Below, piece by piece: positions 48,224 through 54,614 of a stretch of DNA of 64,000 bases (within the stretch, counting starts at the first letter, position 1; each line of letters opens with the position of its first letter). Origin of the DNA: Escherichia phage O18-011. The translations under genes and the position numbers were made by a program. The stretch lies in the sequence record NC_070985.1; one strand, written 5' to 3'. The notes beneath the pieces are model-generated. The model saw only the letters and a program-made list of their open reading frames with translations, searched no databases and had not been told where the DNA came from.

Positions 48224-48520
48224 ATGACTTTAGAAGTATATAAATTCCTTTTTGTAAGCTGTTTAACTATCAGCGTTATAGGATTTATTGTTCTCAGAAA
48301 CAAAGCAGCAAGCTGGGAGAGAATGTATAAGTCCCTAGTCCGAGTAGATGAGATGTATAATGAGAAAGTTAAAGAAACTCTTAACGATCTTATTATGCAA
48401 GTAGAGGACAGAAACAAGCGTCTTCAGAGTCTCAACCATGAAGTATTGCGCCTTGCTCGTGCTAATGAAGACTTGCGAGTAGCCATTGCTAAACAGCAGG
48501 AGATTAACAATGATAATTGA
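48224..48520 (+). CDS. membrane-anchored coiled-coil protein
   Basis: N-terminal TM helix FLFVSCLTISVIGFIVL followed by heptad-like charged region. Confidence 0.45.
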   Translation: MTLEVYKFLFVSCLTISVIGFIVLRNKAASWERMYKSLVRVDEMYNEKVKETLNDLIMQVEDRNKRLQSLNHEVLRLARANEDLRVAIAKQQEINNDN

Positions 48521-48746
48521 TATGAACAACGCCCCAAAGGTTTTAACTCTTGGGGATTTAGAATCAGGTGATGTATTCCAGTTCCCTCTGGATGGGGAGA
48601 ATTATTATATGTTATCTAGTCAGAAGTTTGGGACAACAGACAAGAGAAGTTATATCAATCTTTCCTGTGGTGTTATTGCAATGGATGAAGGTAATACAGT
48701 CATCAAGAAGATCAACAATGCTCGGCTTACCAATAAGGTGGATTAA
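48510..48746 (+). CDS. small protein family member 1 (GDVF / YYM / NL.TG family)
   Basis: ATG 48510 after AGGAG; motifs GDVFQF, YYML, INLSCG. Confidence 0.5.
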   Translation: MIIDMNNAPKVLTLGDLESGDVFQFPLDGENYYMLSSQKFGTTDKRSYINLSCGVIAMDEGNTVIKKINNARLTNKVD

Positions 48747-48965
48747 ATGGAAATTAAAGTAGTTGACTATCCTAAATATGCAAATGCAGAAGATATTAAG
48801 GGTGGTGATGTTTTCTCTTATGATAAACGTTTCTGGCTGATGCTAGAAGATAAAACCCCTGACGGTTTACGTAAGGCTGCCAATCTGGGCACTGGTTATG
48901 TTGAAGTCTTCGGCCTATCAACCACTGTTATGCCACGTCCTGATCTGTGTTTGACTCAAAAGTAA
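48747..48965 (+). CDS. small protein family member 2
   Basis: SD AAGGTGG; motifs GDVFSY, FWLML, ANLGTG. Confidence 0.55.
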   Translation: MEIKVVDYPKYANAEDIKGGDVFSYDKRFWLMLEDKTPDGLRKAANLGTGYVEVFGLSTTVMPRPDLCLTQK

Positions 48966-49264
48966 CACCGACTTATAGCCCTTGTATTTATCAGAGGGCT
49001 ATGTGAGGGTGTTCCTCATTAACTTATTAAATCAGGCATATGCCACACCGCTAGGGAGAGCTTGCTCGAACATCCGGTGTTAGACTAAAACCTGTTAATT
49101 TTCGAAAGGCTTTCCGATATGTAGGGGTACGTATTGGTTTGGGATTCAGGAGACTTCCTAGGGGTAGGGAGTCTTCACCAGTTTGTAGAGTAGGTGGCTC
49201 TATTGTAAGAGTCATCCGCTATATCAACTGGCAATAATGCCTCCACTAACAAAGAGAGATAGGT

Positions 49265-49405
49265 ATGAAAGTATCAACCAAACGTATGAACCGCCCTGAA
49301 CGTATGGATGCAGTAGCTAACGGTGCTCTGAAACTGGAAGGCTTCTGGATTCATGCAATGTCAGCCATCCGTAACAAGCAAGGTAATTGGACCTATGCCG
49401 GTTAA
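49265..49405 (+). CDS. small basic protein (46 aa)
   Basis: ATG 49265; codons typical of highly expressed genes (cgt, ctg, ggt); below track cutoff. Confidence 0.4.
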   Translation: MKVSTKRMNRPERMDAVANGALKLEGFWIHAMSAIRNKQGNWTYAG

Positions 49406-49604
49406 AACAGCCCATGTAATAGGTATGCGAGAGATCATTCGCATTGCCTTGATGGAACACACTGATCGAAACATGCAACTAACGCAAATCTCTAAGTGTC
49501 TTAATTGCTCAAGAGATATGGCTAAGGAATTAATGTTCGCATTCCTTTATAATGCAGAAGATGAGTTTTTACAAAATCGTCTGCTTGGTTTAAAACAGAA
49601 ATAA
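49395..49604 (+). CDS. hypothetical small protein
   Basis: ATG 49395 after AAGGTA within track ORF 49353-49604; followed by terminator. Confidence 0.4.
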   Translation: MPVKTAHVIGMREIIRIALMEHTDRNMQLTQISKCLNCSRDMAKELMFAFLYNAEDEFLQNRLLGLKQK

Positions 49605-49609
49605 ATAAA

Positions 49610-49641
49610 AGGCTGCCCAATAGGGTGGCCTTTGTTGTTTT
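49610..49641 (+). terminator. rho-independent terminator
   Basis: AGGCTGCCC-aata-GGGTGGCCT followed by TTGTTGTTTT; near-identical stem to terminator at 1214. Confidence 0.6.
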
Positions 49642-49685
49642 AATTAAGGGACAACTCTTACTTAAACTAACAAGAGGAAGCTCAA

Positions 49686-49862
49686 ATGTCTAAGCAAACA
49701 ATCAAGAATACACAAGCTGGTTACTCTTATGTTAACTCTCCTTGCTGTGGTGCTCGTGTTAATCTGGTTAAGGAAGAGGTCCGTATCGTTCAGCGTGGCG
49801 CTACTGTTGTTCGTTCATGCTGTGTCTGTGGTAATGACATTTTTATCAAAGGTAAAGTATGA
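49686..49862 (+). CDS. small zinc-ribbon-like protein (58 aa)
   Basis: ATG 49686 after GAGGAAG; Cys pairs SPCCGARV...SCCVCGND. Confidence 0.4.
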   Translation: MSKQTIKNTQAGYSYVNSPCCGARVNLVKEEVRIVQRGATVVRSCCVCGNDIFIKGKV

Positions 49863-50083
49863 TTATCGTACACTCTGAACCTAAAGATAATACTTTTGGT
49901 AGTCTACGTAATGGTGATGTATTCTCTCTAGAAATAGACGGGGATACAAAACCTCCTTTATACATGAAGGTTATGCACAGACATGCTATCTGTATAAAGA
50001 ATCCTGAAACAAGATTTACATTTGATAGAACTTGCCCTGTCAAATACTATCAAGCTACCTTAAATGTTAGGAGAGTAGGATGA
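49859..50083 (+). CDS. small protein family member 3
   Basis: Motifs GDVFSL, LYMKV; ATGA overlap with upstream gene. Confidence 0.5.
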   Translation: MIIVHSEPKDNTFGSLRNGDVFSLEIDGDTKPPLYMKVMHRHAICIKNPETRFTFDRTCPVKYYQATLNVRRVG

Positions 50084-53006: not shown

Positions 53007-53040
53007 AAGGGAGGATTCGTCCCCTCCCCCTATTTTATTG
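53007..53040 (+). terminator. rho-independent terminator
   Basis: GGGAGG-attcgtcc-CCTCCC followed by CTATTTTATTG. Confidence 0.45.
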
Positions 53041-53087
53041 AATCTTTATCTAAGCAAGTCTTATATAAATATTTAATTGGAGGATGT

Positions 53088-53399
53088 ATGAAAGCACGAA
53101 GAACTATATGGACTCCGATGCAGATTGAAAATCTTCGGAGACTAATCAAAGAGTACTCTGTTCAAGAGGTTGCTCAGATTATGAATGTAACGGAGAATGC
53201 AGTTAATACAGCTTGCACTAAGTTCGGTATCTCTAGAGCTGTAGTCCGAGTTAAGTGGTCTAAAGAAGAAGATCAGTTCCTTATCCGTAATGCCGGGTTC
53301 ATGTCTATTCAGAGAATGGCTGACATGCTCGGTAGAAGCTATGCTGCTGTACAGAACAGGGCATGTATGCACCTTAACATTAGCCTCAAACTTAAATAG
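53088..53399 (+). CDS. tandem helix-turn-helix (Myb/SANT-like) DNA-binding protein
   Basis: Two repeats: WTPMQIENLRRLIKEYSVQEVAQIMNVTENAVNTA and WSKEEDQFLIRNAGFMSIQRMADMLGRSYAAVQNRA. Confidence 0.4.
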   Translation: MKARRTIWTPMQIENLRRLIKEYSVQEVAQIMNVTENAVNTACTKFGISRAVVRVKWSKEEDQFLIRNAGFMSIQRMADMLGRSYAAVQNRACMHLNISLKLK

Positions 53400-53407
53400 G
53401 AATCAAT

Positions 53408-53653
53408 ATGAAGATCCTTCCCAAAATTAAAGATAAAACTGTTTCACTGGATACGATCATTCCCGGAAACCCTTTTGTAATCCAGCAAGGTTCAGCATCG
53501 CCTCAGTATTATATTCGTGTTACCAATGTGTCCAATAAGATCTCTGTCGAAGGAGGTTGGATTACTACGGTTAACCTTATGACTGGCGTTTTGGGTGTTA
53601 TGAAAAGTGATACTCAGGTTGAAATGATTCGCATGTCTGTGGTTCAGGAGTAG
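53408..53653 (+). CDS. small protein family member 5
   Basis: Motifs GNPFVI, YYIRV, VNLMTG. Confidence 0.5.
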   Translation: MKILPKIKDKTVSLDTIIPGNPFVIQQGSASPQYYIRVTNVSNKISVEGGWITTVNLMTGVLGVMKSDTQVEMIRMSVVQE

Positions 53654-53658
53654 TGTAG

Positions 53659-53907
53659 ATGAGCACCATTCACATCAAAGTAAAGCAAGACGAAGACTTG
53701 GCTATATGCGTCTCCAACCTGAAAACATCAGATGTATTCACTTTGAAAGAGTGTAAACTAGGTAAGATTTACATGCTAGCAGATATTAGCAGAAGTTGTA
53801 AGCCTGCTGTAGCTATTAATCTTGGAACTGGAGAACTTCGGACAATTGCTGGTGATATGGTTGTTGGTGAGAAGTTTAGTAAAGTTGAAATGATCTTAAC
53901 TCCATAG
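53659..53907 (+). CDS. small protein family member 6
   Basis: Motifs SDVFTL, IYMLA, INLGTG. Confidence 0.5.
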   Translation: MSTIHIKVKQDEDLAICVSNLKTSDVFTLKECKLGKIYMLADISRSCKPAVAINLGTGELRTIAGDMVVGEKFSKVEMILTP

Positions 53908-54138
53908 GAAAACAAATGAGACGTAAAGCATATTCTTATGACGATATGATTAACCAGAAAGGCTTCGGTCAACGACAGCCTGACGGTTCAATTATCTGGT
54001 TCGTAAACGGACAGAAAAAGGTAGCTAAATAAGCCCTCTTCTCTCCTCCTTTTAGTACTATGACGCCTCTCTGTGGGCGGCCCAATTTGCGTAGGGAATT
54101 CCCTCTACGCAGCCATAACTTTTTAAGGAATTTCCCCT

Positions 54139-54372
54139 ATGTCTAAAGTAAGTGCAATTGATGCAATTCGTCAACCGTTCCAGTTCCAATCCAAATCAAC
54201 CCAAACCTTCAGTGAGCCTAAGCAAATTCGCTTGGGTGGCACAGAGAAAACTGTGTTCGATCTGGCTAAAAACAAGAGCGTTACCGTAGTTGATGGTGGT
54301 ACTCTGGTTAACGTTTCCCATCGTATTCGCACTGGCAAAACCGCCAAAGATCGTGCTAAGAAAGGTGAGTAA
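54139..54372 (+). CDS. hypothetical small protein (possibly distant family member)
   Basis: ORF track; weak resemblance (IRLGGTEKTVF...VNVSHRIRTG). Confidence 0.4.
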   Translation: MSKVSAIDAIRQPFQFQSKSTQTFSEPKQIRLGGTEKTVFDLAKNKSVTVVDGGTLVNVSHRIRTGKTAKDRAKKGE

Positions 54373-54614
54373 TGAAAATAGGGAAACCAGCTAAGGATGT
54401 TCTAGCGAAGATTAGTGATATCTCTATTGGGGAAGTTTTCTCAGCAGAGCACTTTTCAAGTTACTACATGAAAATCCCTGACACTAAAGTAGAGGGTTGC
54501 ATCATCCCTGCCAACGCAGTTAACCTGAACACAGGACACCTATCTGCATTCAAACCTGATTCACAGGTTACTGAAATCAAAGATGCCTACCTCGCCTTTG
54601 GTGGGGATAAGTAG
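54372..54614 (+). CDS. small protein family member 7
   Basis: Motifs GEVFSA, YYMKI, VNLNTG. Confidence 0.5.
   Translation: MKIGKPAKDVLAKISDISIGEVFSAEHFSSYYMKIPDTKVEGCIIPANAVNLNTGHLSAFKPDSQVTEIKDAYLAFGGDK

Follow-up and report, generated by a model that had tools for sequence, protein, structure and literature searches.

The stretch of DNA analysed here (the window) comprises 64,000 nucleotides (nt) of Escherichia phage O18-011 (NC_070985.1), a Kuravirus, that is, a phiEco32/SU10-like coliphage. Seven small open reading frames (ORFs) between positions 48510 and 54614 of the window are almost certainly genuine protein-coding paralogs that belong to one ancient, widespread and unnamed family of phage proteins. 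The original prediction had grouped them by a shared, ordered set of short motifs as one family interleaved with unrelated genes, and profile comparisons now bear this out. All seven lie on the + strand at the predicted starts, and each ATG is preceded by a Shine-Dalgarno-like GGAG, AGGA or AAGG. The proteins are 72 to 82 amino acids (aa) long rather than the 75 to 82 aa first given.

Homology of the seven genes

Direct similarity among the seven proteins is weak (pairwise identity of 13-32%), and some pairs of ortholog-group profiles align in hhalign at a probability below 10%. This favours the explanation that unrelated small ORFs share the motifs by chance or through their composition, as does the fact that three long repeat proteins (P0105, P0116 and P0138) also scored in a profile search through short motif matches; these three were rejected as motif-level false positives caused by NHL- or RCC1-like repeats. 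However, a hidden Markov model (HMM) trained solely on 126 other members of the family, most of them distant and from metagenomes (the remote-member HMM), recovered exactly the seven among the window ORFs (E values of 5e-19 to 3e-7, the next being 0.58), so that their E values lie over six orders of magnitude away from those of the remaining 752 ORF segments. The alignments cover profile positions 1-71 for six members and 3-61 for the ORF at 53659. When each member was left out in turn and the window's full set of 759 six-frame ORF segments was searched with the resulting HMM, the omitted member was always the best non-training match (E values of 3e-10 to 4e-3, with unrelated ORFs at 0.04 or above). 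Alignment of the ortholog-group profiles with 107 distant relatives, which share under 40% identity with every kuravirus protein, gave hhalign probabilities of 95-99.3% for every member, as expected from the prediction of a single family, and the PHROG families of the seven cross-match one another. Structure models (see below) also share strand order and structural neighbours. Chance similarity, to which we give next to no credence, is already effectively refuted.

The predicted motifs were found in register in MAFFT alignments, and six of the seven proteins carry the full set if substitutions are allowed. The set is nonetheless looser than first written: the ORF at 52277 has G-S-I-F and V-N-L-W-N-G, that at 53659 has S-D-V-F, that at 48510 has I-N-L-S-C-G, and the last motif is absent from the ORF at 49859. 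The latter is the weakest member, with the first three motifs kept and C-I-K-N-P-E-T in place of N-L-x-T-G at the hairpin; phiEco32 gp98 likewise lacks N-L-x-T-G and has C-V-R-N-P-K-D at that hairpin. We assign 49859 to the family because its HMM match is full length, because a distant member (P0148) matches its PHROG, phrog_10911, at 8.5e-7, and because its structure model agrees.

The members differ in their distribution among the seven kuraviruses compared, and below each is given with its E value in the remote-member HMM search and its hhalign probability against distant members. Member 1 (48510..48746, +, 78 aa) is an ortholog of SU10 gp114, is present in three of the seven phages, and scored 3.6e-15 and 99.0% (phrog_9955). 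Member 2 (48747..48965, +, 72 aa; phiEco32 gp113 ortholog) is found in all seven, scored 3e-15 and 99.1% (phrog_6570), and has a median ratio of nonsynonymous to synonymous substitution rates (dN/dS) of 0.09. The divergent member 3 (49859..50083, +, 74 aa; phiEco32 gp109 ortholog) scored 3e-7 over its full length and 95% over its N-terminal half only. Members 4 to 6 are again present in all seven kuraviruses: member 4 (52277..52498, +, 73 aa; phiEco32 gp104 ortholog) with 1.5e-16, 99.2%, phrog_6570 and a dN/dS of 0.11; member 5 (53408..53653, +, 81 aa; gp96 ortholog) with 4e-14, 99.0%, phrog_7431 and 0.20; and member 6 (53659..53907, +, 82 aa; gp95 ortholog) with 6e-9, 98.2%, phrog_12612 and 0.21. 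Member 7 (54372..54614, +, 80 aa), which is nearest to the family consensus, is restricted to the window phage and XT18, and scored 5e-19 and 99.3%. In total the seven fall into five PHROGs (9955, 6570 twice, 10911, 7431 and 12612 twice; E values of 1e-30 to 1e-40). No eighth family member was found in the window; a candidate at 11607-11810 was rejected, being antisense inside the terminase gene with an E value of at least 0.06.

Predicted fold and spread of the family

We modelled two of the seven proteins with AlphaFold2. Member 7 gave an all-beta model (predicted local distance difference test, pLDDT, 81; predicted template modelling score, pTM, 0.70), and member 3 gave a model with the same strand order (pLDDT 88). 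Fold searches of BFVD with the two models returned overlapping matches to the same uncharacterised phage proteins, and the member 3 model matches the EP335 ortholog of member 7 in BFVD with a template modelling (TM) score of 0.74. The common fold implied by the original grouping thus holds for the two proteins modelled. The family is a single-domain protein of about 70-82 residues, predicted to be all-beta, and the model looks like an SH3-like small barrel.

The conserved core consists of an N-terminal M-K-I, G-D-V-F, Y-Y-M-K, N-A-V-N-L-x-T-G and C-terminal hydrophobic residues. Across 102 aligned sequences the conserved columns are M1-K2-I3, F14, L17, G20-D21-V22-F23, Y31-Y32-M33-K34, N48-A49-V50-N51-L52-x-T54-G55, F60, V66, A72 and L74, which are mainly hydrophobic or turn-forming residues. 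Residues 24-30 and 36-46 are variable, the latter segment also in length. Conservation in the alignment thus follows the pattern of a stable scaffold that carries variable loops. Net charge is negative in 74% of the remote members (median isoelectric point of 5.1) and ranges from -2 to +3 in the seven. Since its members are mostly acidic, the family is unlikely to bind nucleic acid.

The family proved far larger than the original prediction could see. An exhaustive profile search of 1.84 billion protein representatives (clusters at 50% identity, E value of at most 1e-3) matched 1,840 clusters; those listed are nearly all 66-90 aa long and match end to end. The family consensus is MKIEDKKKKKTVKFKDLKSGDVFKYDEEYYMKTEEVDDEDEINAVNLSTGELESFDDDTKVEPVNAELVIE. 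Tandem fusions of two domains make up 14 of the best 150 profile matches (about 10%). A word-indexed search with the seven proteins themselves returned kuravirus orthologs only, all of which have an identity of 58% or more to one of the seven, and therefore each paralog represents an old, separately conserved lineage; a second word-indexed protein search gave 34 matches and added little. With the consensus as query, tblastn detected the family in 95 cultured phages of Escherichia, Shigella, Proteus, Cronobacter, Salmonella, Vibrio and Pseudomonas. The same search of cultured phages with a single distant member (P0217) gave no match, and a single-protein scan of bacterial genomes gave no confirmed relative. 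Searches of bacterial genomes and of viral contigs with a degenerate DNA pattern were negative, the pattern being too narrow to be informative on prophages.

Members were recognised in several well-studied phages. These are N4 gp21 (family HMM E value of 2.6e-17), LUZ24 gp7 (YP_001671880, 77 aa; 1.7e-9), PaP3 ORF.65 (2e-7) and nine proteins of phiEco32, gp95-98, 104, 109 and 113-115 (4e-20 to 8e-6). They are homologous along their full length, have the same size and motif order as the seven, are encoded among small ORFs in early or middle regions, and are all annotated 'hypothetical protein'. N4 and LUZ24 carry one copy each, in contrast to the 7-10 copies of kuraviruses.

Metagenomic contigs with distant members are all phage-like and usually carry several copies. 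Near-identical temperate siphophage-like contigs differ in having three or five tandem copies; a distant kuravirus-like contig (L003) has an adjacent pair of copies, with an amidoligase cluster downstream of them, and another contig has two copies alongside Bro-N and YorF genes. One contig with two family members (L002) also encodes, at 6758-7150, a stand-alone 130-aa protein with a match to the RNA polymerase alpha C-terminal domain. The original description of the genes as an expanded family is accurate in that they are multi-copy here, and needs qualifying in that this is not special to the window phage, the family being widespread and commonly multi-copy. Multi-copy families of small early genes are a familiar feature of phage genomes.

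A marginal family HMM match (E value of 7.6e-5, 16 bits, among 146 ORFs) was given by phi3T_104, a homolog of SPbeta YopY (L019, 7134-7412), which may, on this match, be a very distant relative of the family in Bacillus phages.

No named domain had been assigned to the seven proteins, and this remains the case. Neither Pfam nor NCBIfam matched the family when 102 members were scanned one by one, and the Pfam models of KOW, Tudor, CarD_TRCF, Sm, YorP and DUF2829 (Tad2) matched none of the seven or the 102 members even at an E value of 0.1. PADLOC gave no match at that threshold for the seven, N4 gp21, LUZ24 gp7 or P0217, and a sequence profile search of the PDB gave none for the family. In PHROGs the family is scattered over at least 10 families of 'unknown function', including 7832, 8365 and 16423. 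The present evidence joins PHROGs 6570, 7431, 12612, 9955 and 10911 into a single superfamily, which comprises at least 1,840 clusters (50% identity). The family is unnamed and uncharacterised in the resources searched, while its fold class is common.

Early expression and turnover in kuraviruses

The seven genes sit in the early transcription unit, which is transcribed by the host sigma70 RNA polymerase right after infection. In the window, middle genes occupy the + strand from 1 to ~10.8 kb and late structural genes the - strand from there up to ~42 kb. They are followed by an ORF-poor spacer with sigma70-like promoters and then by a long series of small ORFs on the + strand. The unit that holds all seven genes is headed by a perfect sigma70 consensus promoter (TTGACA-16-TATAAT, 12/12 matches; 43958..43985, +), in agreement with the early-promoter spacer reported for SU10 and phiEco32 (PMC4281155), and a second sigma70-like early promoter (10/12 matches) lies at 44264..44292 (+). 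The motif of promoters of the gp36 type (recognised by the phage sigma), TAATGTATA, is absent from the + strand between 43 and 64 kb and occurs exactly where middle and late promoters are expected. In SU10, CDS (coding sequences) 69-125, which include orthologs of the seven, are assigned to the early class, whose sigma70 promoters lie in the spacer (PMC4281155). The predicted early location is thereby established. Between 42000 and 57000, sigma70-like sites as such are not over-represented (22, with 36 expected), the one at 43958 being the sole perfect consensus, and terminator-like hairpins are (24, with 9.7 expected).

When positions 48000-55000 were compared with phage records by megablast, 107 records matched, nearly all of them Escherichia or Shigella kuraviruses (phiEco32, SU10, NJ01, Bas91 and others), and every ORF under the match is a 'hypothetical protein' in every relative inspected. 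The stretch is mosaic, because identity to kuravirus records is 90-96% and yet query coverage is just 65-81%. The early cluster has also been described as the most diverse part of the genome in 7-11/phiEco32-like phages (PMC8948821).

In a scan of the homologous regions of seven kuraviruses, copy number was lowest in the window phage with 7 and highest in NJ01 with 10; Bas91 has 8 copies, and XT18, SU10, CHD5UKE1 and phiEco32 have 9 each. These copies form 13 ortholog groups, of which only four, those of 48747, 52277, 53408 and 53659, are present in all seven phages. In other kuraviruses the slot of 54372 is taken by a 'membrane protein' gene; in phiEco32 (gp92; L012, 22290-22754), SU10, CHD5UKE1 and Bas91 this gene is 465 nt long (annotated 'moron' in Bas91), and the exchange appears as a clean cassette swap behind a conserved 234-nt ORF. 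XT18 has an apparently decaying paralog, a truncated copy of 61 aa (L015, 8017-8199) in a group whose members are 84 aa elsewhere. Median Nei-Gojobori dN/dS values of 0.04-0.38 across all informative ortholog groups indicate purifying selection, and therefore the genes are kept by selection even as the repertoire turns over. The family had also been called diversifying; this is right for the ancient divergence of the paralogs and for copy gain and loss, and wrong if taken to mean current positive selection.

Several other features of the window were noted. Two adjoining ORFs between members 3 and 4 (50339-50500 and 50509-50718, +) have the pattern C-x-H-(D/E)-W ... C-K-x-C, which suggests zinc-ribbon paralogs. 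They are followed by an HNH/homing-endonuclease-like ORF (50742-51191, +), whose 3' end lies inside the start of a tRNA-Arg(TCT) gene (51182-51257); the arrangement is the same in Bas91, and phiEco32 and SU10 lack the endonuclease. In the middle region, adjoining ORFs at 1279-1530 and 1532-1816 (+; 83 and 94 aa) resemble paralogs of each other, with ...ART.V.LR...GKFISY... and a C-terminal PFPKG in common, and belong to a family distinct from that of the seven genes. Directly downstream of member 7 (55375-64000, +) are genes for two large unknown proteins, a COOH-NH2 ligase, an amidoligase and a GlmS-like amidotransferase; PaP3, LUZ24 and contig L003 have this conserved cluster in common.

Possible functions

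We tentatively favour the reading that the paralogs are soluble, non-toxic protein-binding modules directed against non-essential host factors, with counter-defence as the leading candidate role. Early expression, small size, non-toxicity, acidity, the scaffold-plus-loop pattern, turnover of copy number, gene arrays and fused doublets all suggest such modules. In this scheme the conserved residues would build the barrel, and each paralog would bind its own partner through the variable loops. Binding would neutralise the partners, non-essential proteins of the host that most plausibly act in antiviral defence or as stress factors, and a changeable set of 7-10 modules per phage would follow from such paralog-specific partners. 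Dimers or hetero-dimers may form, as the tandem gene arrays and the fused two-domain versions suggest.

The early region has been described as likely to contain host-takeover genes (PMC8948821), and this position and the small size of the proteins would also suit classical takeover toxins that block essential host processes. We consider such a role very unlikely. Of 13 LUZ24 early proteins, including Gp7, that were expressed in P. aeruginosa PAO1, only gp4, gp6, gp9 and gp11 impaired growth, and none of the tested LUZ24 proteins affected E. coli (Wagemans et al. 2015, PMC4635203). That gp7 is non-inhibitory speaks against host shut-off of the classical kind, and an anti-defence role would still be plausible. 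This growth result is the only experimental datum we found on any family member, and our literature search found no functional study of N4 gp21 or LUZ24 gp7. The family is also present in arrays in temperate phage genomes, and many redundant paralogs would be atypical for shut-off factors.

Candidate neighbours in fold are the SH3-like small beta-barrels of KOW, elongation factor P (EF-P) domain I, the ribosomal L2 C-domain, Tudor, FeoA and the CarD-Mfd RID. These generic neighbours are what suggests another role: like KOW, Tudor/CarD-RID or EF-P-type domains, the paralogs might bind nucleic acid or the machinery for transcription or translation, and in this way adjust RNA, the ribosome or the host RNA polymerase to the needs of the phage. 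RNA polymerase is a frequent target of small early phage proteins, and phiEco32 itself encodes gp79, a sigma70 displacement factor (PMC12276001), which is, like the proposed modules, a small regulator that binds a host protein, in its case at the beta' N-terminus. Nevertheless we regard a machinery-binding role as unlikely: no KOW, CarD or Tudor model of Pfam matched among the 102 members, the proteins are mostly acidic, and 7-10 differently diverged copies per genome are hard to square with one conserved target. Moreover, inhibitors of RNA polymerase are normally toxic, and LUZ24 gp7 was not. As a possible relative gp79 was rejected, since it is a four-helix protein (PMC12276001) and the family is predicted to be all-beta.

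The position of family genes directly upstream of the amidoligase cluster in the window (55375 onward), phiEco32, PaP3, LUZ24 and contig L003 raises a further alternative, a phage-internal role. The proteins could be small chaperones, adaptors or regulators of phage proteins, and might, for example, belong to the adjacent cluster of amidoligase, COOH-NH2 ligase and glutamine amidotransferase or be its substrates. Non-toxicity would then be expected, and universal presence in kuraviruses with low dN/dS, as seen for four paralogs, would fit. We think a role of this kind improbable, because N4 and the temperate siphophage-like contigs L006-L009 have the family and lack such a cluster, copy number differs between near-identical phages, and for most kuravirus groups there is a relative that does without them. 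In addition, no family member was detected in a proteome preparation of SU10.

For the favoured protein-binding modules, a functional precedent exists in Nip of phage phi3T, a protein with SH3-like domains that neutralises the defence protein SpbK by binding it (PMC11984713). Unlike the family, Nip is 279 aa long and has two SH3-like domains plus an HU-like dimerisation domain. The genes also resemble those of anti-CRISPR and anti-defence clusters in being small, non-toxic, early accessory genes in variable arrays that differ between close relatives; they differ from them in that the orthologs are well conserved, four being universal in the genus. No known anti-defence family was matched, although such families were not screened systematically.

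Gordonclarkvirinae were found in the BASEL study to be remarkably resistant to restriction-modification and to other tested defences, with no known inhibitors (PMC11990801). One could extend the binding-module reading to a large, so far unrecognised superfamily of 'plug-in' modules, in which each paralog would use its variable loops to neutralise a different host immunity or stress protein and the sets of 7-10 in kuraviruses would explain this resistance; we hold this wider proposal to be doubtful. Several points weigh against the favoured reading. For the restriction resistance of kuraviruses the BASEL authors propose DNA modification, not inhibitors (PMC11990801). Nip has no sequence relation to the family (hhalign probability of 0.5%) and was rejected as a relative. 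No positive selection was detected among the ortholog groups by dN/dS, and the four universal, strongly conserved kuravirus paralogs fit a core phage function no less well than an arms race. Non-toxicity is a single result, for one distant member in one host. The functional part of the proposal is an inference from fold, context and evolutionary pattern.

Small early genes without a known function dominate phage genomes. Seven anonymous ORFs among them now become one defined family with a recognisable fold, a conserved core, variable loops and at least 1,840 clusters, which we regard as a well-defined and tractable lead rather than a surprise. Since the family is absent from Pfam and NCBIfam and fragmented in PHROGs, a single profile would improve the annotation of many phage genomes. 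Members occur in three experimentally tractable phages or groups, N4, LUZ24 and the kuraviruses of the BASEL collection, and N4 gp21 and LUZ24 gp7 are tractable single-copy entry points for testing the idea of immunity-neutralising modules. If the proteins are counter-defence factors or binders of host factors, the arrays would be a new source of inhibitors and could help to explain the broad host range of phage-therapy kuraviruses. If they serve a core phage function, they would define a new conserved step of infection in N4-like, kuravirus-like and Bruynoghevirus phages.

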